Shown one piece after another: positions 10,715 to 62,600 of a stretch of DNA of 64,000 nucleotides. The DNA lies in the NCBI GenBank assembly GCA_964505265.1, contig CAZDGN010000006.1:24214-88213 (forward strand), in the 5' to 3' direction. The notes beneath the pieces were generated by a model that made no database searches, was not told where the DNA came from, and was given only the letters and a program-made list of their open reading frames with translations. Made by a program: the position numbers and the translations under genes. This DNA comes from an uncultured Rickettsia sp. Its GTDB lineage: Bacteria; Pseudomonadota; Alphaproteobacteria; Rickettsiales; UBA1997. Position 1 is the first letter of the stretch. The number at the start of each line of letters is the position of its first letter.

Positions 10715-12058
10715 ATGGAACCAGAACAAGAATATGACCGAAGAGTCTCTTCAAAAATTTATTATCTTCATAATAGCAATAAAAAAGCTAATAAAAATAA
10801 TAAACCAGATAACCACTCCATCAAACCAAGTGAAGATTTATCTTCGACCAATAATCTTGTTGCGATAGATGATTATATCAAATTAAACTCACCTACAATT
10901 CCAGTATATTGTATAAGACCAAATTCAATAAAAAAAGCTGTGAATTTTTTTCAAAAAGAATTTGTTTCTAATAATAATCCAACAGAAATTTTATATTCTG
11001 TAAAAAGCAATCCAGATCGTCAAGTTTTAAGGCACTTGTTTAATAATGGCATCAAGCATTTTGATGTCGCTTCCCTTTCAGAAATAAATTTAATTGACGA
11101 GTTATTTGGCAATAAAAATGTCAAGATGTATTTTATGCATCCAATTAAATCTCCAGAATCAATTGCCGACGCTTATTTCAATTATGGAATAAAAGATTTT
11201 TCTTTAGATTCTTTTGACGAGCTAGACAAAATTCTTAAAGCTACAAAAAATGCAAAAGATCTTGGCTTACACATTAGATTATCAATTCCAAATTCGCATT
11301 CGGCGATTGATCTATCTGGAAAATTTGGCATTTTACCATCTGACTCAGCTGGTCTCTTGAGAAAAGCTAGAGCCATCGCCAAAACCCTTGGTATCTGTTT
11401 CCATGTTGGCTCTCAATGTATGGATCCAGTTGAATATAGAAATGCAATCATAATTACCAAAGAAGTCCTCGAGGATTCTGAAGTAAATATTGATGTGCTT
11501 GATATTGGAGGCGGTTTTCCATCAATTTACCCAACAATGACTCCGCCAAATTTAACTCATTATTTTGATGAAATTTTTGATGCAATTGAACATCTAAATT
11601 TATCTAATAACTGCAAAATATGGTGCGAACCCGGAAGAGCATTAGTAGCCGAATCTGGCTCACTAATAGTTAGAGTTGAGGGCAGAAAAAATCATATGCT
11701 TTACATTAATGATGGAACCTATGGTGGATTGTTTGATGCTGGCTATCCCGGCTTTATTTACCATACCAAGGCTATTAGAATTAAAAATGAATCAAAATTA
11801 TCTTCGGAAAAAATTGCCTTTGGATTTTATGGTCCAACTTGCGACTCACTTGATACTATGAAGGGTCCGTTTTATTTACCAGAAAATATTCAGGCTGGCG
11901 ATTACATTGAAATTGCTCAACTCGGAGCTTATTCTCGAAGCATTAGAACTGAATTTAATGGTTTTAATAAAAACTTACAAATCGAGGTAAAAGACCTTCC
12001 AATTGAGTCAATGTATCCCGATATTCAAAATCAAAATATAAAAAAAATTAATTCATAA
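10715..12058 (+). CDS. Ornithine decarboxylase (fold-type III PLP, alanine-racemase fold)
   Basis: YSVKSNP, FHVGSQ, DIGGGF, EPGR, GPTCDSLD, GAYS. N-terminal extension, so the start is uncertain. Confidence 0.88.
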   Translation: MEPEQEYDRRVSSKIYYLHNSNKKANKNNKPDNHSIKPSEDLSSTNNLVAIDDYIKLNSPTIPVYCIRPNSIKKAVNFFQKEFVSNNNPTEILYSVKSNPDRQVLRHLFNNGIKHFDVASLSEINLIDELFGNKNVKMYFMHPIKSPESIADAYFNYGIKDFSLDSFDELDKILKATKNAKDLGLHIRLSIPNSHSAIDLSGKFGILPSDSAGLLRKARAIAKTLGICFHVGSQCMDPVEYRNAIIITKEVLEDSEVNIDVLDIGGGFPSIYPTMTPPNLTHYFDEIFDAIEHLNLSNNCKIWCEPGRALVAESGSLIVRVEGRKNHMLYINDGTYGGLFDAGYPGFIYHTKAIRIKNESKLSSEKIAFGFYGPTCDSLDTMKGPFYLPENIQAGDYIEIAQLGAYSRSIRTEFNGFNKNLQIEVKDLPIESMYPDIQNQNIKKINS

Positions 12059-12061
12059 TTT

Positions 12062-13096
12062 ATGGTAAATAAAAAAATTTCAAAAAAAGATTTACTTAAA
12101 AAACAAGTAGAGCATATCGACATTACCTCCTTTGATGCAAGACCAATCATATCACAAATGGACAAAATGTCATTTACCTCAAGAGATTTGGCAAGAGCTA
12201 CTGAAATTTTTAATATGATGTTAGCTGACAAATCATGTTCGGTTATTTTAACTCTTGCTGGTTCAACTTCGGCGGGCGGATGTATGAAGCTTTATGCCGA
12301 TATGATTAAATACAATATGGTCGATGCCATAGTGGCAACCGGAGCCTCAATTGTTGATATGGATTTTTTTGAAGCCTTAGGTTTTAAACATTACCAAGGT
12401 ACTCCTTTCATTGATGACAAGTTCTTGCGCGATAATTACATCGATAGAATTTACGACACCTATATCGATGAAGAAGACTTGCAAAAATGTGATCATGCTA
12501 TTTTTGAAATTGCCAATTCACTTAAAGCAAAACCATATTCATCGAGAGAATTTATTGCCGAAATGGGCAAATTTTTGCAAAAAAAAGCCAAAAAGAAAGA
12601 TTCATTAATTCAGCTTGCTTATGAAAATAATGTACCGATTTTTTGCCCAGCCTTTACCGATTCATCTGCGGGATTCGGTTTGGTTTTACATCAAGTCAAA
12701 AATCCAAAATCACATATTACTATCGACTCAATTCGTGATTTCAAAGAATTAACTGATATTAAAATTAAAGCTGGAACCACTGGATTGCTAATGATTGGTG
12801 GAGGAGTTCCAAAGAATTTCGTTCAAGATACCGTAGTTTGTGCTGAAATTTTAGGTAAGGAAGTTGATATGCATAAATATGCAATTCAAATCACAGTAGC
12901 TGACCAAAGAGATGGAGCTTGCTCATCTTCAACTCTAAAAGAGGCTTGCTCTTGGGGTAAGGTAGATGTAGCTTTTGAACAAATGGTTTATGCCGAAGCT
13001 ACTTCAGTTATTCCATTACTAGCATCATGTGCATATCACGATGGCAAATGGAAAAAAAGAGTTAGAAAAAATTTTAGCAAATTATTTAAGGGATAG
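12062..13096 (+). CDS. Deoxyhypusine-synthase-like protein (probable homospermidine synthase)
   Basis: VDAIVATGA, CPAFTDSSAG, GGGVPKN, DGACSSSTLKEACSWGK. Starts 3 bp after the decarboxylase. Confidence 0.88.
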   Translation: MVNKKISKKDLLKKQVEHIDITSFDARPIISQMDKMSFTSRDLARATEIFNMMLADKSCSVILTLAGSTSAGGCMKLYADMIKYNMVDAIVATGASIVDMDFFEALGFKHYQGTPFIDDKFLRDNYIDRIYDTYIDEEDLQKCDHAIFEIANSLKAKPYSSREFIAEMGKFLQKKAKKKDSLIQLAYENNVPIFCPAFTDSSAGFGLVLHQVKNPKSHITIDSIRDFKELTDIKIKAGTTGLLMIGGGVPKNFVQDTVVCAEILGKEVDMHKYAIQITVADQRDGACSSSTLKEACSWGKVDVAFEQMVYAEATSVIPLLASCAYHDGKWKKRVRKNFSKLFKG

Positions 13097-13236
13097 TTAA
13101 TTTTAATATTGATTTAACCATAAATCATCTTAAAATTAGTTAGCAAAATTATTCGATTTTAATCTTGTACATTAAATTATGTTTAATAAATTGATTGAAA
13201 TTCATTAATATTATTAAATCGCAATCTTAATTCAAT

Positions 13237-13737
13237 TTGATGTTAGAACAGAAATCAATTTTTAAAATCTCGTTTATTTATTTTTTTGCCGCAATATTAA
13301 CGGCGATGAATCTTACCAACATAAGAGTTGCCGGAATTAACAATTTGTGGCCTCTTTTTGACCTAATGGCAATTTTTTACTTTGGAATCTTTAAAAATCG
13401 CTTCGGCTTGGCATTTATTTTTTTTCTTGGAATTTGGAATGATGCCATCAACGGCAATCCTTTGGGTCTTACTTCTCTAAGCTATATTATGCTTATAAAA
13501 ATATTTTCAATTATCAATCAAAGGATTTTATCTAAGGAAAATTTCATTCATATCTGGAAACAATTTGTGGTTTTTTTAATTCTGTTTTTAATCTTTAAGC
13601 TTGTGCTTTTTGTGATAATTTCTGGAAATTTTATTTCAATTAAAATTATGCTGTTTCAATTTGTAATTTCAATTTTTGTTTACATTCCAATCCATGTATT
13701 TTTTGATTATTTAAGCAAAAAATTATTAGAAGAATAA
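13237..13737 (+). CDS. mreD: Rod shape-determining protein MreD
   Basis: Highly hydrophobic 166 aa with GIWNDAINGNPLGLTSL, directly upstream of PBP2. TTG start. Confidence 0.75.
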   Translation: MMLEQKSIFKISFIYFFAAILTAMNLTNIRVAGINNLWPLFDLMAIFYFGIFKNRFGLAFIFFLGIWNDAINGNPLGLTSLSYIMLIKIFSIINQRILSKENFIHIWKQFVVFLILFLIFKLVLFVIISGNFISIKIMLFQFVISIFVYIPIHVFFDYLSKKLLEE

Positions 13738-17370: not shown

Positions 17371-17634
17371 CTATTTTTTAACAGGAGCTGGAGCTGGAGC
17401 CGGAACTGCAACTGGAACAGCTGCTGGAGCGGTTGCAGCATTTTCTTGAGCTTTCGCTTCAGCTTTTTTAGCTTTTTTAGCTTTTTTAGCTTTTTTTTCA
17501 GCTTTAGGGGCTTCAGCTGGAGCTGGAGCATTAGCAACTACTGGAGCATTAGCTGGAGCGGTAGCTGGAGTTTGAGCATTAGCAACTGATGCAAACATTG
17601 CAAAGATTGCCACGATTAGTGAAAATTTTTTCAT
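17371..17634 (-). CDS. Small exported Ala/Pro/Lys-rich low-complexity protein
   Basis: Signal peptide ending ANA; APA repeats flank a (KKA)4 core. Confidence 0.8.
   Translation of the reverse strand: MKKFSLIVAIFAMFASVANAQTPATAPANAPVVANAPAPAEAPKAEKKAKKAKKAKKAEAKAQENAATAPAAVPVAVPAPAPAPVKK
17461..17496. repeat. Four tandem 9-mers AGCTTTTTT (KKA codons on the minus strand)
   Basis: Read directly from the sequence. Confidence 0.85.
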
Positions 17635-23412: not shown

Positions 23413-24444
23413 TTAATTGCGAATTAATTTTAATAAAAATTCAACATTTTCAATTGGAGTTTGCGGTAAAATTCCATGACCTAAGTTAAAGATAAAAGGT
23501 TTATTTTCAAAGGTTTTAAGGATTTTTCTTACTTCATTTTCGATGATTTTTTTATCACCAAAGGCCAAGATAAAATTATCAAGATTTCCTTGAATTATTC
23601 TATTATTTTTTTCGTAAATATTTTCTATTGCCCAATTTAAATCAAGATTTTGATCAATTGCCAAGCCATCGCTATTAACCTTTTTTGCAAAAACCTCATA
23701 ACCGTTTCCAATTGCTTTTGGAAAATAAATTACAGGAATTTCAGGATGATTTAATTTTAGATAATTAACAATTTCAATTGCTGGATTTATTACCCATTTT
23801 TCTAGGAGAGTTGGTGGTAAAATTCCTGCCCATGAATCAAAGATTTTAACAATATTTGCTCCAGCTTTAATTTGTGAAGTTAAATATATTTTTAAACTTT
23901 CGGTTAAAATTTTTATAAGATTACCAAAATCTTCTTCGTTTTTTAAAGATATTTGACGGATTTTTTCAAAATTTTTCGAGCCTCCACCTTCAAGCATATA
24001 ACAAGCTAAAGTCCAAGGAGCTCCACAAAAACCGATTAAATCAATAGCTTTATCTAATTTTGATCTAGTGAGGTTTATAGCTTCGTAAACTGGATTTAAA
24101 TTTTTATTAATATCTTGAGTATTTAATTTTAAAAGATCGCTTTCTAGATTAAAATTAGCCAATTTTGGACCATGATTTTTAACAAAATCAACTTTAAGTC
24201 CTAAAGCATCTGGAATTACTAAAATATCAGAGAAAATAATTGCTGAATCAAAATTAAATCTGCGAATTGGTTGTAAAGTTACTTCACAAGCTAATTGGGG
24301 ATTATAACATAAATCTAAAAAATTGTTAATTTTAGAGCGGACTTCTAAATATTCTGGTAAATATCTACCAGCTTGCCTCATTATCCAAATTGGTGGTTTA
24401 GAACATGATTTTTTATCTTTTAAAATATTAAATAATTTATTCAT
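23413..24444 (-). CDS. hemE: Uroporphyrinogen decarboxylase
   Basis: WIMRQAGRYLPEY, IFSDIL, FNLGHG. Confidence 0.96.
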   Translation of the reverse strand: MNKLFNILKDKKSCSKPPIWIMRQAGRYLPEYLEVRSKINNFLDLCYNPQLACEVTLQPIRRFNFDSAIIFSDILVIPDALGLKVDFVKNHGPKLANFNLESDLLKLNTQDINKNLNPVYEAINLTRSKLDKAIDLIGFCGAPWTLACYMLEGGGSKNFEKIRQISLKNEEDFGNLIKILTESLKIYLTSQIKAGANIVKIFDSWAGILPPTLLEKWVINPAIEIVNYLKLNHPEIPVIYFPKAIGNGYEVFAKKVNSDGLAIDQNLDLNWAIENIYEKNNRIIQGNLDNFILAFGDKKIIENEVRKILKTFENKPFIFNLGHGILPQTPIENVEFLLKLIRN

Positions 24445-24717
24445 TATATTTAGATGTAATTAATAGGTGATGTTAATATTTTAATAAACATTTATTAACA
24501 AGTTATTAACAATTTTACCAACATTAAAATTATTGTAAATAATGCATTTAATAAAGTTATTAACAATTTTAAAATGGTTAAAAAAAGGTTATTAACATTA
24601 ATAAATTTGTTGATAAAATGTTAATATTGTTAATAAGTTTTTCTTTAAAAAAAATATGTTTAATAAGTTCACTTTTATTAACAAGTTATTAACATTTTAT
24701 CAACATAGTTATTAACA
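24445..24717. other. Putative chromosomal replication origin (oriC)
   Basis: Extremely AT-rich 273-bp gap upstream of hemE, the known origin position in Caulobacter and Rickettsiales. Dense with DnaA-box-like and CtrA-like repeats. Confidence 0.75.
24492..24717. repeat. Array of TTAT(T/C)AACA 9-mers
   Basis: TTATTAACA forward at 24492, 24503, 24557, 24589, 24675, 24686, 24709 and reverse at 24628; TTATCAACA forward at 24697 and reverse at 24608. Confidence 0.9.
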
Positions 24718-24975
24718 ATGGAAAAAATAATATTTAAAAAACTACAAGAAGCCTTTGAACCAGAGTTATTGAAGGTTGTTAATAATTCTCATCTTCATAG
24801 CGGACATTTCGCCGTTGAAAATCCTAAGCATCATAATCAAACACATTTTTTAGTTAAGATTTCTGCAAAATCTTTTGCCAATAAATCAAAAATTTCAATT
24901 CATCGCGAAATAAATAATTTACTCAAAGATGAATTTAAAAACGGTCTTCATGCTCTTGAAATCAAAATAATATGA
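24718..24975 (+). CDS. bolA: BolA-family protein
   Basis: NNSHLHSGH, HREIN, GLHAL. Confidence 0.88.
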   Translation: MEKIIFKKLQEAFEPELLKVVNNSHLHSGHFAVENPKHHNQTHFLVKISAKSFANKSKISIHREINNLLKDEFKNGLHALEIKII

Positions 24976-25931
24976 ATAAAAAAAATAAATTATTTCTTTT
25001 TTTGTTGTTTTTAACTTCGTCATGTTCAAGTTTACAGAAACAAAATCCAATCATCGAAGAAGCCCCGAAAAAAAATAATGTTTATTTTAAAATTAAACCA
25101 AAGAAATTATTGGATTTAAAAGATGGGGTAAAGCCTGCAATTTTGCAAATAAAATGGTGTAATTTAAATTCAGGAAAATGTCAAGGCGGTTTTACTAGTT
25201 ATCATTGTAGTTTTGATGATGATAAAAGCTTATGCGGTGATCTCGAAAAAGAATTTAAAGAAGCTAAAATTATGAAAGAATATGAAAGTTTTGATTATAC
25301 AAAACTTTTTTTAAAAAGCGGAATATGGTACATAGATAGTATTCAAGAAATTTCAAATAATAAATTCGATAAAAAAATATCTAAAATAAAAAATCCTAAC
25401 GACAATTTATATTTTAATAATCAAAAATTTTTGACAAACCCAACTTTAGATTTAAAAAAAGATAATCAATTTGCAAGGATGGTTGATTTAATTGGTTTTG
25501 GAAGTATAGTTTTTGCAGAAAATATTAAGCCTTCCACCTCTGAACAGTTCATAGTAGAGGGATTTTTTTTGATTAATGGGGTGTTTTTTATGTCAGTTGG
25601 TCGATCGATAAATTATATCAGCACAAAAGATTTTGGTTTTATTAATAATTTTACAACCGCTCTAAATAAGGATACAAATAAAAATATGGATAGGTTTCTA
25701 AGTTTTGAGGTCAAGGAAAATCAAGTTATAAATTTAGGAGATATTGAAATACTTATAAGAATTCGTGGTGGCAAAGGAGAAAAAAGAAGAGAGGGTTTGG
25801 TTGATTTAGAATTTAAAAATGATTTAGAAAAAATTTTAAAAAATGATGTAGATTTGAAAAAAATCAAAATCATTTACCAAGAGCCTAAAACTGGTAATTT
25901 GATAGGTAAATTTGGTGGTGGATATTTTTAA
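24972..25931 (+). CDS. Hypothetical lipoprotein
   Basis: Basic N-terminus, hydrophobic stretch, LTSSC lipobox-like motif; overlaps the bolA stop. Confidence 0.65.
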   Translation: MNKKNKLFLFLLFLTSSCSSLQKQNPIIEEAPKKNNVYFKIKPKKLLDLKDGVKPAILQIKWCNLNSGKCQGGFTSYHCSFDDDKSLCGDLEKEFKEAKIMKEYESFDYTKLFLKSGIWYIDSIQEISNNKFDKKISKIKNPNDNLYFNNQKFLTNPTLDLKKDNQFARMVDLIGFGSIVFAENIKPSTSEQFIVEGFFLINGVFFMSVGRSINYISTKDFGFINNFTTALNKDTNKNMDRFLSFEVKENQVINLGDIEILIRIRGGKGEKRREGLVDLEFKNDLEKILKNDVDLKKIKIIYQEPKTGNLIGKFGGGYF

Positions 25932-31719: not shown

Positions 31720-32976
31720 TTATTTTCGTTTCGCTTTTTCCATATCCCTTGAAATTTTTTCTGCTATTGCATATCCAACAACCCCTCCAGCTGTAATTCC
31801 GGCTATGGATGCCAAAACTGGTGCACTTGGAACTGATACCGCTGCTAAGGCGCCAAAAGCTAAACCGCTAGTTAAGGCACTATATATTTTTACTTCATCT
31901 GGGCTACCAAATAAATCCCATAGATTTTGATTTTGTTGTGCAGGAGTGGATGTGGAATTATTGTGATATGATGATGAATTGAAGGAGGGTGTTGCGTTTG
32001 GGCTTGGTTCGTCTTCTGCAAGAATCATTTGGCTTGAAACATGGTCTGTGCCAACTTCTCCAGGTGGTGATCCAAGTTGTTTATCTGGTAATTTATTTTG
32101 TTGGGGGGGCGAGTTTCTGCAAACCAATGCAGCTTGGTTCCTTGGCGGTGTTTCGTTTGTTTTTTTTGTTCCATCTTCGCCTACGTGTTTTGAGTCTGAC
32201 GCGCTACGATGTTGGGGATTGGATTCAGGCTCATGATCTCTTTCGGTCCTGTAGACATTTCCTGTTGTTATGACAGCAGGGCTCGGAGGAGGGCAACCCA
32301 ATCTAGCTCTTGCTGGCGGAGGAGGTGGAGTTGATTGCTTGCTTAGTGGCTGATCATCTGGGGGTCGGGTAAACAAACTACTGCAAGTTAGGACACTATC
32401 TGTATTTATATTTGTAAGAGGAGCCTCTGATAAATTAGCTGCCCTAGTAGATACATGGCCTTTGGATCCTGATCCTGAACCGGATGTTGGAACAAAGGAA
32501 TCTAACCGAGGTGTCGGCATCACTGAAGTTCTAGCATCGAAAACGAGATTTGTTTTTATTGTTAGAACAGAATCGTGGGTAGGACATCTTGTGGGATTTG
32601 GTTTAGATTCATTATTAGGTTTATCAGGTTCAAATGATCTTCTTATACGCGAAACTGCTCCAGGGCGTATTACATTTTTTGCATCATTAGAGCTCGTTGA
32701 TCCAGAATTTGATCTCGGCGAATGATTTTTTTGGATGGGCAAAACTTCTGTACCCAATGGTAAGTAATTGACATTTTTGATAGATTGATTAGAATCCAAA
32801 GGGTCGAGGGGAGGGGGATGAACAAAAACAAGAGTTGCAGTGGTGGTGATACAATTATCAAGTAATTTCTTCTCCAGAGTCAAAGGTTTCATTCCAGCTC
32901 TTAATCCAGTATATAACTCATTTTTAATAATCCCAAGTTCTGCACTAACACTATCAGCAATCATACAAATCAACAA
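31720..32976 (-). CDS. Pro/Ser-rich disordered protein with C-terminal hydrophobic hairpin
   Basis: 418-codon ORF whose stop lies 2 bp from the convergent gene; PPPPP tract; two Gly/Ala-rich helices at the C-terminus. Start uncertain. Confidence 0.65.
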   Translation of the reverse strand: MLICMIADSVSAELGIIKNELYTGLRAGMKPLTLEKKLLDNCITTTATLVFVHPPPLDPLDSNQSIKNVNYLPLGTEVLPIQKNHSPRSNSGSTSSNDAKNVIRPGAVSRIRRSFEPDKPNNESKPNPTRCPTHDSVLTIKTNLVFDARTSVMPTPRLDSFVPTSGSGSGSKGHVSTRAANLSEAPLTNINTDSVLTCSSLFTRPPDDQPLSKQSTPPPPPARARLGCPPPSPAVITTGNVYRTERDHEPESNPQHRSASDSKHVGEDGTKKTNETPPRNQAALVCRNSPPQQNKLPDKQLGSPPGEVGTDHVSSQMILAEDEPSPNATPSFNSSSYHNNSTSTPAQQNQNLWDLFGSPDEVKIYSALTSGLAFGALAAVSVPSAPVLASIAGITAGGVVGYAIAEKISRDMEKAKRK

Positions 32977-35069: not shown

Positions 35070-36728
35070 TTATAACTTACCAACAATTTCACGAACTGGA
35101 ATTTCGTTAATCATAAATTCAAGATTCTTCTCTCTTCTAACATCGAATTGAGAAACATCATCTTTGGTAACTGAGTTTTTTGAAGCAATTTCCACAGCAA
35201 CAATAGGTAGAGATGAGGCAATGTTGTTAAGGAAGATTTCATAATTTTGTATGTAGCTAGCATTAGCTTGCTCAACACTAACCTCATTGCCTTGGGCGGG
35301 GGCGCTAGGTTTTTTTGTTTCAGCATATTTTCTGAATTGACCCGAAAGTTGTTGGATTAGGTTGCCAATTTTTTCAATTTTAACTGTAATACCGCCCGAT
35401 GGATAATTGTCGTCAGATGATGAAGAAAAGTCTCCAGTTACATTGATTTTATATAGTGGATTTGAAAGTTCAAAATTTTCAATTTTAACATTGTGAACAT
35501 ATTGAATTGGTAATTCTTGAATTTGTGTTGGGTCTACTGGCTCAGATTCATCTTGCTTGATTGATGGGGTTAGAGTAATTACTAAATCCATAATAATATT
35601 GCTTTTAATAATGCTAGTATCAACAATAGCATCTACAATATTCGGAGTTGGTTGAGCAATTTCGGCCGCGACATTGTTTGGTGCTGACGATGGATCGACA
35701 ATAGTAGGTGGCTGAATTTGTGGATTTGATGGGTCATTAGCTGCGACTTGATTGGCAATAACAACGGCTTGTCTCATTGCATCAACTGAATTTGTTGCAA
35801 CAATTGATGGATTGTTTGGTTGATTTGGGTTATACGGCACTCCAGCTTCGACAGGAGTTGGCGAAGGGGCGGTTGCAGTTTGTGGCTTTGCAGGATTGGC
35901 AGCTGATACAGCTGTAGCAGAAGGCGGAGTAGCTGGGTTTGCAAGAGGAGCTGGTTGAGCCTGAATTACAACATCACCTGGTTGAGTTCCAATAGCTTGT
36001 GGATTGGTTGGGGGGAGTTGGCTTGGGTCGGGAAATACATTGCTAATTACCCCAATTTGATTGGGCTGATTATCAGATAATCTAACTTTGATCTCTTCGG
36101 TTTTGATTCCTTCGATAACCTTTTTTTCGAGTATGTTTTTGTAAAAGTCAATTAAGGCATAGCCCTCAACCTCATTAAGAGAGATTGAAACTTTGCTGGT
36201 TTTTTTGTCGGTTTCATCAACTGTAGTTTCAGATGAGATTGATGTTCCTTTGGTAGAATTGATAACATTTTTTTCGCCATCTAAAACTTTAAATCCGCCA
36301 TCAGAATATTTGAAGTTGGATATAAATCCGTCATTTAGAGAAATCAAAATTTCTGGTTGATTAGCAAACTCAATATCATAAATATCACCTTCATTATCTT
36401 GGGTTTTAACTACATCAAGAATATTTATTTTAAATTCGCTGGAAAAAATTCCAGCACTCGCTTCGATTTTTTTAAGAATAAAAGTTTTTTTGGAAACTAA
36501 ATTTACAGGAATAGTTATTTTTAAATCATTGATTGTGATTTTTTGATTTAATGGAAAACCAGCTACAGATACCTCGCCAATATTAATATAATTTGAGTTT
36601 TCACCAATTAATTTGTTAATTTGCTTTTCAGTTTGACCAGCTTTAAAGAACCAAAAAACACAATAGGACAACCCTATTACAATTAAGACAATGGCTAATT
36701 TAATTATAAGACCTTTTTTCATAAACAA
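35070..36728 (-). CDS. Membrane-anchored periplasmic protein, DUF2125-like N-terminus with a Pro/Ala/Gln/Asn-rich insertion
   Basis: N-terminal TM helix ending YCVFWFF, VSVAGFP motif, about 130 aa of central low-complexity sequence. Confidence 0.65.
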   Translation of the reverse strand: MFMKKGLIIKLAIVLIVIGLSYCVFWFFKAGQTEKQINKLIGENSNYINIGEVSVAGFPLNQKITINDLKITIPVNLVSKKTFILKKIEASAGIFSSEFKINILDVVKTQDNEGDIYDIEFANQPEILISLNDGFISNFKYSDGGFKVLDGEKNVINSTKGTSISSETTVDETDKKTSKVSISLNEVEGYALIDFYKNILEKKVIEGIKTEEIKVRLSDNQPNQIGVISNVFPDPSQLPPTNPQAIGTQPGDVVIQAQPAPLANPATPPSATAVSAANPAKPQTATAPSPTPVEAGVPYNPNQPNNPSIVATNSVDAMRQAVVIANQVAANDPSNPQIQPPTIVDPSSAPNNVAAEIAQPTPNIVDAIVDTSIIKSNIIMDLVITLTPSIKQDESEPVDPTQIQELPIQYVHNVKIENFELSNPLYKINVTGDFSSSSDDNYPSGGITVKIEKIGNLIQQLSGQFRKYAETKKPSAPAQGNEVSVEQANASYIQNYEIFLNNIASSLPIVAVEIASKNSVTKDDVSQFDVRREKNLEFMINEIPVREIVGKL

Positions 36729-52393: not shown

Positions 52394-53041
52394 ATGGCCG
52401 AAAAGGATAAGAAAATAAAAATTAAAAGTTGGTATTCTAATCGCTATCAGATTGTTGCAGTGCAAAGGAATGTCTTACTTTTATTAACGGCAACTTCAAT
52501 TATAATGGTGGCGATTGCGGTTTTTTTTGTAAAAAATTTTATGTCTTCAAAATCGCTTGAACCTTATGTTATAGAGATTAACGAAAAAACCGGAACAGCG
52601 GTTGTTGTTCAGCAAATTACTTCACAAACTTTTACTGCCAACGAAGTTATGAAGAGATATTTTATTAATAAATATGTTCAATCTGCCTTAACTTACAATC
52701 CCAGAAATTATAAAGAAAATTCTGAAGAGGTGAGATTATTTTCAACATCGCAAATTTTTAATGAATATCGAAATCGCATTAATCCTTATTCCCTTGGTTC
52801 TGAATCACAAATTGAACTAAAAATTCGGTCATTGCTTTTTAAAGATAATATGAATGTTGAAATTAGAACCACAAGAGAAATCAATATTGTTGGTCAAAAA
52901 TCGACTACAAAAAATGAAATTATTTATATGACTTTTTATTTTGCACCTGAATTAAATTTATCAATTGAAGAGAGGTTAATCAACCCACTTGGTTTTCAAG
53001 TCTCTAAATTTGAGGTCGCTGAAGAGATTATTAATCAATAA
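52394..53041 (+). CDS. virB8: Type IV secretion VirB8-family protein
   Basis: Single N-terminal TM, LEPYVIEINEKTG, C-terminal INPLGFQV. Confidence 0.88.
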   Translation: MAEKDKKIKIKSWYSNRYQIVAVQRNVLLLLTATSIIMVAIAVFFVKNFMSSKSLEPYVIEINEKTGTAVVVQQITSQTFTANEVMKRYFINKYVQSALTYNPRNYKENSEEVRLFSTSQIFNEYRNRINPYSLGSESQIELKIRSLLFKDNMNVEIRTTREINIVGQKSTTKNEIIYMTFYFAPELNLSIEERLINPLGFQVSKFEVAEEIINQ

Positions 53042-53043
53042 CT

Positions 53044-53913
53044 ATGAAAAATTTTTTTGTAAAATTTATTTCTAAATTCTTAATTTTATCGAATATTTTT
53101 TTGATAAATTCTTTAGTATTTGCTCAAACTCCAATTACCACGGACTCACGAATTAGAACCTTGGTTTATAATCCAAATGAAGTTTATGAGTTAAAATTTT
53201 ATTATAATTATCAATCTTTTATCGAATTTGCTAATGACGAAGAAATTGAAATGATCTCGGTCGGTGAGGCTTTTTCATGGCGACTTACTCCAGCTGGAAA
53301 AAGATTGTTTGTGCGTCCGCTTGAAATTGCTGCTCATACCAATATGACTATAATCACGAATAAAAGAATTTATCACTTCGATATTCGTTCTGATGAATTT
53401 ACTGGGAAGGCTGATGAAGACTTGGTTTACACTGTAAGATTTTTTTATCCACAAATTGGTCAACCTTTGCCAATTCCTCCTCAACTTGCCGTGCCTAATG
53501 TTGCTTCTAAGCCTCGTCAATTGCAAGAACCAATTGCTCCTCTTCCAGAATTGTCTGGAATTATTAAAACCCCAATTCCAAAAGCTAGAGTTGACCAAAA
53601 GTTGCCTGGAATTATTGAACGCAATCCAGAGGATGCGGTTTTAAATTTTGACTATCGTTTTTCTGGAGAATCCGACAATATTATGCCTTTGAAAGTTTAT
53701 GATGATGGCAATGAAACCCATTTTCAATTTGCTAATGATAATTTGGTAATCCCAACTATTAGCGCTGTTGATCCTTACGGCATTGAAACCCCAGTCAATT
53801 ACACTATTCGTGACCGATATGTGGTGGTGCCAATTGTAGCTCGTCAATTCACTTTAAGATTGGCTGACAGTATGCTTTGCATCTACAATGCTAAAAATCT
53901 TCTTCCAGAGTAA
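53044..53913 (+). CDS. virB9: Type IV secretion VirB9-family protein
   Basis: Signal peptide, DSRIRTLVYNPNEV, NMTIITNKRIY, VYDDGNETHFQF. Confidence 0.9.
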   Translation: MKNFFVKFISKFLILSNIFLINSLVFAQTPITTDSRIRTLVYNPNEVYELKFYYNYQSFIEFANDEEIEMISVGEAFSWRLTPAGKRLFVRPLEIAAHTNMTIITNKRIYHFDIRSDEFTGKADEDLVYTVRFFYPQIGQPLPIPPQLAVPNVASKPRQLQEPIAPLPELSGIIKTPIPKARVDQKLPGIIERNPEDAVLNFDYRFSGESDNIMPLKVYDDGNETHFQFANDNLVIPTISAVDPYGIETPVNYTIRDRYVVVPIVARQFTLRLADSMLCIYNAKNLLPE

Positions 53914-61559: not shown

Positions 61560-62600
61560 TTAATACATTTCCAAATCTCTTCTTGAGGAATTTGTTTGGG
61601 AATTTATTGGTGATTGAAAAACCGTAGTTGCAACAATATTTTTTGGATGCAAAGAACAATCATCCCTTTTTATATTATCAATTTTTAATGCCCAAATACA
61701 TCCGAAAAAAGCTAAGCAAGAATTGCACAAATTTGATTTTTCTTCTTTATCAACAAATGCCCCGCTTGAGCTTAAATAAATAGTTTCCCTGGATTTTCTC
61801 GAAATATCCATTGAGGATTTCGGGGTGTAGCTAGAAAGTGAAATTCTAAAAATATCGTTGGAGTGTCTATTTAACTCGCTATTGCTCATAAATTCAAATT
61901 TAACCGAACCTTTAAGAAATTGCGCAATCAATTCTTTGTTATTTTGGTTTTGCATTAGGATAAAATCACGATTAATTTCGTTTAAAAAATCACGAAATCT
62001 TTTATTTTTGTCTAATAACCCCTCTGTAAATCTAGAATCTAATAATTTACTTGCATCAAAAAACTTAACTAAACCAAAAGAGGAAAAAAAATAAAATTCA
62101 TCTGAGTCAAGAGAAATCTTGAAGGAATTTTCTGGAGTCGAAATGTTTTGTTGAGTTTTGTAGATTTCATAATAATCAAGAATCTCTTGCAATGAACTAT
62201 TAAATTCTAAGCTATTTTTTATAGTAATGCTATTTTGATTTTTTAATTTTTTATAATTTGCTACCTTAATAAGCTCTGATTTATAAAATTTACTTTCACA
62301 ATATTCAAATTCAAAATCTGGAAAATCTTGAGGTGGAACCCAAAAATTAAATAACATCATTTTTAGCAATTTTTTGTCAGTATCGTTTAAAACCTCCAAT
62401 TCGCCAAAGTAAATATTCATTGATTCATAGATTTCTTTGCAATTTAAATCGTTAGTTAAAAGCATTTGATTTAATCTAAAAAAATCAGATTGAGAATGAT
62501 CTGCTTCCGTATCTTTATGAATTTCCTTAAGTGTCAAAATTTGGTGTGCAATCTTATGAGAGTGCTCTTTTGGATTGTTTTCGGCGGTTATTTCTGGCAT
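61560..62600 (-). CDS. Hypothetical protein with a C-terminal Cys cluster
   Basis: 346-aa ORF with no recognisable family; CNSCLAFFGC near the C-terminus. Confidence 0.7.
   Translation of the reverse strand: MPEITAENNPKEHSHKIAHQILTLKEIHKDTEADHSQSDFFRLNQMLLTNDLNCKEIYESMNIYFGELEVLNDTDKKLLKMMLFNFWVPPQDFPDFEFEYCESKFYKSELIKVANYKKLKNQNSITIKNSLEFNSSLQEILDYYEIYKTQQNISTPENSFKISLDSDEFYFFSSFGLVKFFDASKLLDSRFTEGLLDKNKRFRDFLNEINRDFILMQNQNNKELIAQFLKGSVKFEFMSNSELNRHSNDIFRISLSSYTPKSSMDISRKSRETIYLSSSGAFVDKEEKSNLCNSCLAFFGCIWALKIDNIKRDDCSLHPKNIVATTVFQSPINSQTNSSRRDLEMY

Follow-up and report, generated by a model that had tools for sequence, protein, structure and literature searches.

The replication origin of Caulobacter (Cori) lies in a hemE-gap-DUF299 (COG1806) arrangement, which is also that of the predicted Rickettsia origin (PMC6393856, PMC1914354). 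Cori and the origins predicted for Rickettsia and Wolbachia have in common an adjoining hemE gene, a divergent gene, an AT-rich gap, several non-consensus DnaA boxes, and internal promoters (PMC6393856, PMC1914354). We found the same set of features, the boxes and promoters being predicted ones, in a 64-kb stretch of contig CAZDGN010000006.1 (hereafter the window), where a 273-bp gap at 24445-24717 separates hemE from a divergent bolA gene. The organism is an uncultured, Rickettsiales-like bacterium from fresh water, and its chromosome very probably starts replication in this gap. The gap departs from its described counterparts in the flanking gene, which is bolA here and DUF299 or COG1253 there, and in the boxes, which are of the TTATTAACA type here and G/W boxes or TTATNCACA there. 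Of the features specific to Cori, the DUF299 flank, the IHF site, and the GANTC sites were not recovered, and no CtrA motif independent of the boxes was found in the gap.

An exact-match scan of the gap for the 9-mer TTATYAACA revealed ten copies, as the preliminary description of this DNA had reported, with eight on the plus strand (starting at 24492, 24503, 24557, 24589, 24675, 24686, 24697, and 24709) and two on the minus strand (24608 and 24628). Five further copies have one mismatch (24471, 24479, 24515, 24534, and 24619). The start positions bear out the phased runs described earlier, the start-to-start spacing being 11 bp for 24492/24503 and 11, 11, and 12 bp for 24675/24686/24697/24709. 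The canonical box TTATCCACA, which had been reported as missing, indeed occurs 0 times in 24445-24717, and a stringent DnaA-box definition yields 0 boxes there, every copy having an A at position 6. Boxes in analyzed origins range up to two mismatches from TTATCCACA (PMC4285127); the ten exact 9-mers lie within this range, at one to two mismatches, and the five other copies are one mismatch further off. Below, A6 and C6 denote DnaA-box variants with A or C at position 6.

The whole window contains 15 exact copies of TTATYAACA, ten in the gap and five outside, while dinucleotide shuffles of the window averaged 3.8 copies and never exceeded 11. Whether the 9-mer is equally dense in other intergenic regions had been asked beforehand, and no exact copy was found in the 14 others of at least 100 bp in the window, whose AT content is 70 to 90%. 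Readings of the 9-mer as a parS site, a Fur box, or an extended -10 element were compared by eye and did not fit, and an Rfam search of the gap for noncoding RNA returned no match.

Nucleotide skew in the window changes at the gap. The cumulative GC-skew minimum of the window is at 25066, and the best left/right split falls at 24.0-25.1 kb. Third-codon-position skew changes across the gap from -0.25 on the left to +0.11 on the right for plus-strand genes and from -0.04 to +0.22 for minus-strand genes; the switch has the polarity of an origin, not of a terminus, and survives control for transcription direction. Negative skew on the left and positive skew on the right of the gap were likewise observed in 12 of 15 related loci. 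Gene orientation agrees with the earlier estimate that about 60% of genes on each side point away from the site, with 15 of 24 genes (62%) leftward on the left and 22 of 38 (58%) rightward on the right.

Comparison with other genomes supports the same assignment. Among 64 other alphaproteobacterial loci, at least 46 show the order hemE-gap-DUF299, which is that of Cori, and hemE is the divergent flank here too. When the clade loci (L003-L016 and L028) were compared with the remaining loci among L017-L081, bolA was the divergent neighbor of hemE in 14 of 15 clade loci and in 0 of the 64 others; the bolA flank, singled out as unusual in the preliminary description, is therefore clade-specific, and a single rearrangement at the origin, from DUF299 to bolA, seems to mark the clade. 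The box cluster is kept in the 15 related genomes, whose hemE proteins are 56-95% identical and whose GC content is 31-42%. Together, their origin gaps contain 67 exact and 79 one-mismatch boxes in 5.25 kb, compared with 7 exact boxes in 217 kb of flanking DNA, an enrichment of ~400-fold in the gaps. The closest genomes are freshwater metagenome-assembled genomes labelled 'Rickettsiales bacterium', with hemE of L002 being 95% identical, and an identical hemE protein is on record only on one metagenome contig (Logan SRR8942238). A hemE homolog was found on a contig of 1.09 Mb, a hint of a small genome.

The variation among the boxes points to the protein that would bind them. We determined orthology from an alignment of twelve gaps and a box-by-box table. 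Measured against TTATTAACA, the one-mismatch copies in the 15 gaps differ by A>T at position 3 in 21 cases, by T>C at position 5 in 13, and by A>C at position 6 in 5, and never at position 7. The DnaA consensus is TTWTNCACA (PMC5835720), and apart from position 6 the degeneracy of the boxes mirrors it. The exchange at position 6 takes place within orthologous sites: the box at 24471-24479 corresponds to TTATCCACA in L009, AAATCCACA in L008, TAATTCACA in L006, L007, and L013, and ATATTCACA in L004, and the box at 24608-24616 corresponds to TTATCCACA in L007, L010, and L011, TTTTCCACA in L006 and L009, and TTTTCAACA in L028. This interchange of C and A in the same sites points to one protein, DnaA. 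From these comparisons, the repeats are predicted to be DnaA boxes carrying C6>A, a widespread variant, and not a special DnaA/CtrA hybrid.

A preference for A6 boxes sets the clade apart. The mean per clade origin is 7.2 A6 and 0.9 C6 boxes, versus 0.17 A6 and 0.9 C6 boxes in the 64 other alphaproteobacterial hemE-upstream regions, and C6 boxes are missing altogether from the window, L002, and L003. AT-richness alone was rejected as the cause of the cluster: equally AT-rich gaps of the window have no boxes, and equally AT-rich origins outside the clade (L062, L041, and L072) use C6 boxes. Taken together, these results favor, at the level of sequence, an oriC at the ancestral hemE-linked position in which the 9-mers represent DnaA boxes with the pattern TT(A/T)T(T/C)AACA, that is, TTWTNCACA with C6>A, and we consider this likely. 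The earlier proposals of a probable oriC and of non-canonical DnaA boxes are both supported, the one well, by the hemE position, the skew, and the conserved box cluster, the other by the canonical boxes at orthologous positions in relatives. The features of the region are collected in Table 1.

Table 1. Genes, predicted DnaA boxes, and other candidate elements at the hemE-bolA gap, in window coordinates.
Feature	Position	Strand	Remarks
hemE (uroporphyrinogen decarboxylase)	23413-24444	-	NCBIfam TIGR01464, E 2.9e-115; Pfam URO-D; left flank, classical alphaproteobacterial origin marker
Candidate DNA unwinding element	24423-24466		Spans hemE start codon; from nearest-neighbour stability scan
Predicted oriC core	24445-24717		273 bp, 85% AT; between divergent hemE and bolA
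DnaA-trio-like AAT TAA TAG (three NAN)	24458-24466	+	Followed by spacer GTGA (24467-24470) and box 24471-24479
Box ATATTAACA	24471-24479	-	Adjoins candidate unwinding element; reads TGTTAATAT on +
Weak box TTATTAAAA	24479-24487	-	One mismatch
Box TTATTAACA	24492-24500	+	Extra copy, window and L002 only
Box TTATTAACA	24503-24511	+	Orthologs TTATTCACA in L004 and L013, TTTTTAACA in most relatives
Degenerate box TTACCAACA	24515-24523	+	TTATTAACA in 8 relatives
Box-like TTATTTACA	24534-24542	-	Overlaps -35-like TTTACA
Candidate hemE promoter	TAAAAT at 24517-24512		TTTACA overlapped by 24534-24542; consensus match only
Box TTATTAACA	24557-24565	+	Conserved (TGTTAATAA) in 9 of the 12 genomes aligned
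Box TTATTAACA	24589-24597	+	Overlaps -35-like TTAACA
Candidate bolA-direction promoter	24592-24619		-35-like TTAACA overlapped by box 24589-24597
Box TTATCAACA	24608-24616	-	Overlapped by IHF-like match
Box ATATTAACA	24619-24627	-	Orthologs TTTTCCACA in L010 and L011, TTTTTCACA in L007
Box TTATTAACA	24628-24636	-	
Array of four same-strand boxes	24675-24717	+	Starts 24675, 24686, 24697 (TTATCAACA), 24709; last box abuts bolA ATG
BolA-family gene	24718-24975	+	Pfam BolA; weak NCBIfam match; right flank, clade-specific
Eleventh exact 9-mer	24777-24785	-	Inside bolA

Among the array boxes, the one at 24686 is TGTTAATAA in 11 of 12 genomes. The eleventh exact 9-mer (Table 1) is probably a coding coincidence, because it encodes V-N-N-S of the BolA motif and relatives do not retain a box there.

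The hemE side of the gap has a candidate arrangement of the basal unwinding system, in which a box is followed within 16 bp by at least three NAN triplets on the strand reading TGTGGATAA (PMC8287927). In a nearest-neighbour scan, no 30-mer of the region was less stable than 24423-24452, which ranks in the top 0.1% of the window; with moderate confidence we assign it as the putative unwinding element. Reading toward hemE on the plus strand, the box at 24471-24479 is followed by GTGA and then by TAG, TAA, and AAT, matching the order of box, spacer, and trio; we infer the strand orientation of this system from E. coli oriC. At the place of the trio, ...CACA-GCCC/GCAC-CTAATA... is conserved in relatives and also in Pelagibacter. 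The central AT tract at 24637-24674 was considered as an unwinding element and rejected, as it has the wrong geometry to the neighboring boxes and is less unstable than 24423-24452.

We hypothesize that DnaA would occupy the ~15 boxes in the gap and that the same-strand runs, with gaps of 2-3 bp (a period of 11-12 bp), would put successive DnaA molecules on one helix face, leading to oligomerization. The hemE-proximal box at 24471-24479, its 4-nt spacer, and the trio-like triplets would next guide the oligomer to the AT-rich stretch of lowest stability, and this stretch, across the hemE start, would open. DnaA probably affects hemE and bolA expression as well, because boxes overlap both candidate promoters, which are themselves predicted. 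In E. coli oriC, array sites are reportedly spaced by ~2 bp, as described by Rozgaja et al. in 2011. The runs resemble the E. coli arrays, in which same-orientation low-affinity 9-mers between stronger sites guide cooperative DnaA-ATP oligomerization (PMC4285127), but the weak sites there are heterogeneous and flanked by consensus R boxes, while here there is one homogeneous variant and no consensus box.

Several points weigh against reading the gap as an origin built of DnaA boxes, and they bring in other candidates for the binding protein. The skew covers the 64-kb window and short related loci only, not the whole genome, and the trio and unwinding-element assignments are pattern matches that may easily be met by chance in DNA of 85% AT. 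High-affinity boxes defined by experiment all end in CACA (PMC4285127), and position 6 is still C in the consensus derived from E. coli, so the A6 boxes may be weak sites; our literature searches found no binding measurements for the TTATTAACA-type variant. Moreover, nearly every relative retains TGTTAATAA in its plus-strand boxes, even those with canonical minus-strand boxes, and this constancy, which could reflect a separate factor or a selected low-affinity class, implies that the variant itself is conserved and is not merely a decayed box. Since relatives with canonical boxes have C6 on the minus strand and keep A6 on the plus strand, and since the exact 20-mer pair TGTTAATAA-NN-TGTTAATAA persists beside dnaA in contigs of 50-54% GC, suggesting selection, another origin-associated protein might bind plus-strand TGTTAATAA and leave only the minus-strand boxes to DnaA. 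We regard this as highly unlikely: the boxes agree with the DnaA box at seven of nine positions and vary in a DnaA-like way, one plus-strand box is TTATTCACA in L004 and L013, the phage-like contig L143 mixes A6 and C6 classes in one phased array, and no universal candidate but DnaA fits a distribution from Mollicutes-like to alphaproteobacterial genomes. It is also unlikely, though less so, that the DnaA of the clade has an altered domain IV that prefers A6, with TTATTAACA as its high-affinity box. The A6 excess of the clade over the 64 other regions and the three origins without any C6 box fit such a change, and class-specific box cores with changes in DnaA helix 5 provide a precedent (PMC5043019), but several clade members keep canonical boxes at orthologous positions, and the DnaAs encoded beside A6 pairs in other phyla keep R399, the H434 equivalent, mostly D433/T435-like residues, and H439. 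A Pfam search of ~60 open reading frames (ORFs) of the window revealed neither dnaA nor ctrA; tblastn with E. coli DnaA found no dnaA in 82 of the loci compared, and no ctrA was found in any of the loci.

The preliminary description had further proposed that the repeats fuse DnaA and CtrA sites, so that DnaA as activator and CtrA~P as repressor would compete for the same bases at the 11-bp pairs. The exact TTAA-N7-TTAAC motifs that it reported at 24495-24510 and 24678-24693 are present, but the idea built on them found no support, and we consider it quite unlikely. Each match in the gap is formed where two boxes sit 11 bp apart and is made up of their letters, so that CtrA is not required to explain it; none is independent, and the whole window has 3 matches, compared with 3.3 in shuffles. 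Two of these three fall in the gap, which speaks for competition, as do the retention of TTAA-N7-TTAA by the 24675/24686 pair in 9 of 12 aligned relatives, the CtrA sites present in the Caulobacter origin and predicted in Rickettsiales, one of which overlaps a DnaA box in Cori (PMC6393856, PMC1914354), the CckA-CtrA system reported for most Rickettsiales (PMC2877005), and the Rickettsiales-style scattered type IV secretion system (T4SS) genes of the window. In relatives, however, arrays are also kept in forms that lack the CtrA consensus: TGTTGATAA copies give TCAA, which breaks the half-site, the L014 pair (TGTTGATAA) is spaced by 12 bp, L008 has no CtrA match of any kind, and in most genomes the pair nearest hemE is spaced by N8. 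Conservation extends to all nine box positions and is not confined to TTAAC. Identical pairs occur in Pelagibacter origin regions, and no ctrA ortholog was found in Pelagibacter (PMC2877005), so the pairs do not need CtrA; pairs also lie beside dnaA outside the Alphaproteobacteria. Nor do other elements of the Caulobacter circuit accompany them, as the gap has 0 GANTC (CcrM) sites, no conserved IHF site, and no exact IHF consensus WATCAANNNNTTR, and the 64-kb window has no ctrA. Of the IHF-like site described earlier, the 12/13 match is there, but it is not an exact site, overlaps the box at 24608-24616, and is replaced by TTATCCACAGG... in relatives; we therefore rejected it. Finally, the gap might be no origin but an operator of divergent hemE/bolA promoters, bound by DnaA as a transcription factor or by another regulator, for example of the Fur family, given that -35-like hexamers are overlapped by boxes, that the bolA ATG directly follows one, and that the window holds a Fur-family gene. 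This is extremely improbable in view of the skew switch with origin polarity exactly at the gap, a position homologous to Cori across the Alphaproteobacteria, a density of ~15 sites in 273 bp, far above any known operator, and the unwinding-prone AT tract adjoining the boxes.

The only TTAA-N7-TTAAC outside the origin is at 13103-13118, in a 140-bp gap upstream of a 166-aa ORF without a family (13237-13737), which is followed by a PBP2 gene; should the lineage possess CtrA, this motif would be a candidate site for it.

Returning to the gap as a probable DnaA-dependent origin, we asked where else its paired boxes are found. A metagenome scan for exact TGTTAATAA-NN-TGTTAATAA, an arbitrary sample that included no control pattern, listed at least 120 contigs, and the counts that follow apply to the matches listed. 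Twelve non-redundant contigs have the pair within about 30-550 bp of dnaA, compared with a chance expectation of ~0.1 case; it lies upstream of dnaA in L158, L127, L123, L124/L170, L129, L174, L192, L117, and L164 and in the dnaA-dnaN gap in L201 and L195, and L135 is dnaA-linked as well. These contigs have a GC content of 0.23-0.54, their DnaAs share only 35-50% identity among themselves and with E. coli DnaA, and they represent at least eight deeply divergent bacterial lineages. The pair is just upstream of hemE in 11 contigs. TGTTAATAA reads toward the gene in 8 of 9 cases upstream of dnaA and in 12 of 12 hemE cases, for 20 of 21 overall.

Four of the hemE-adjacent contigs (L113, L085, L159, and L187) are Pelagibacter, with hemE 91-93% identical to Candidatus Pelagibacter sp. 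proteins. Like the gap in the window, the Pelagibacter hemE-DUF299 gap has the pair, which reads toward hemE, and single TTATTAACA boxes, one of them replaced in L085 by TTATTCACA. Its hemE side carries a TTATTCACA box, a short spacer, and a ATAATACTAATA tract. It differs in having fewer boxes (3-5) and in keeping one C6 box and the DUF299 flank. To judge from this layout, the gap looks like a SAR11 origin of the same design; our literature searches found no experimental characterization of the Pelagibacter origin. Other DUF299-hemE loci with the pair are L101, L163, and L200.

Outside these two settings, similar boxes were observed in phage-like DNA and in repeats. L143:2700-2790 contains one 11-bp-phased array alternating TTCCACA, TTATCCACA, and TTATTAACA, and L104:2150-2240 an 11-bp-phased array made of TGTTAATAA and TGTTGATAA; the two arrays recall the 'DnaA*' boxes of T5-like phages. 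The related contigs L161 (4200-4480) and L125 (2270-2560) have 8-9 TTATTAACA boxes where an AT-rich gap follows the 3' end of an rpiB-like gene, and these clusters may be origins or DnaA-titration sites. A satellite-like tandem array of ~24 TGTTAATAA/TTATTAACA copies at L084:8425-8964, on a contig of 24% GC, is probably unrelated repeat DNA.

The variant itself has been noted before. For Mycoplasma hominis, M. mobile, and M. arthritidis, copies of TTATTAACA that precede dnaA have been put forward as DnaA boxes (PMC2751442); this predicted 9-mer is identical to the one described here, but it has one or two copies upstream of dnaA there and ~15 at a hemE-linked origin here, both being predictions. 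In T5-like phages, TTATCAACA and TTATTAACA were noted as variant DnaA boxes (bioRxiv 10.1101/866236); they stand beside consensus boxes in paired arrangements, although the context there is phage DNA injection or regulation and not a chromosomal origin. The Epsilonproteobacteria offer another clade-conserved, lineage-wide departure from the E. coli box (PMC5043019), with a core TTCAC that has T at position 5, was shown by footprinting to be bound, and is linked to changes in DnaA helix 5, whereas the departure here is at position 6 and is predicted. A hemE-linked origin as a kind and TTATTAACA as a proposed DnaA box are thus known; what appears new is a probable origin built only of A6 boxes and the clade-specific bolA flank.

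The remainder of the window was surveyed for its gene content. T4SS genes are scattered, as in the Rickettsiales rvh system, and include a TrbC/VirB2 pilin (373-729), VirB8 (52394-53041), and CagX/VirB9 (53044-53913), and the biosynthetic genes hisC, trpE, panC, and lysC, mostly missing from classical Rickettsiales, are also present; this combination fits a Rickettsiales-like lineage with a richer metabolism. Next to the origin, 24972-25931 encodes a 319-aa predicted lipoprotein (signal peptide and Cys) with no Pfam or NCBIfam match, and, because it overlaps the bolA stop (ATGA), it is probably co-transcribed with bolA from the origin gap. Large ORFs without a Pfam family at E <= 1e-6 are found at 41701-44322, 35070-36728, 31720-32976, and 61560-62600, the first of which, of 873 aa, lies directly upstream of tonB-exbB-exbD and may encode a divergent outer-membrane receptor. 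An Orn/DAP/Arg decarboxylase-family gene followed by a deoxyhypusine-synthase-family gene at 10715-13096 suggests a polyamine pathway of the homospermidine type. The 87-aa ORF at 17371-17634 has a signal peptide and an Ala/Pro/Lys-rich repetitive body and stands alone in a 535-bp stretch.

The interest that is left lies in the A6 variant itself, which is conserved, oriented, and often paired across phyla. A bolder interpretation, which we put forward as doubtful, is that TTATTAACA, especially as TGTTAATAA-NN-TGTTAATAA facing the gene or unwinding side, constitutes a second DnaA recognition class across phyla that has completely replaced the canonical box here, possibly with a change in domain IV or competition with CtrA. 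If this is true, the second class would serve, for example, as a cooperative or nucleotide-state-selective nucleation site, operating close to dnaA in many phyla and, in AT-rich Alphaproteobacteria, at origins linked to hemE. The biochemical question raised is the affinity and nucleotide state of DnaA for TTATTAACA versus TTATCCACA. In origin finders and most reviews, CACA (positions 6-9) counts as the invariant core of the DnaA box; a clade-wide origin with ~15 predicted boxes and no CACA core would mean that TTWTNAACA is needed in origin prediction for AT-rich uncultured bacteria. For the lineage itself, the assignment would fix the origin for genome orientation and for coverage-based estimates of growth rate.

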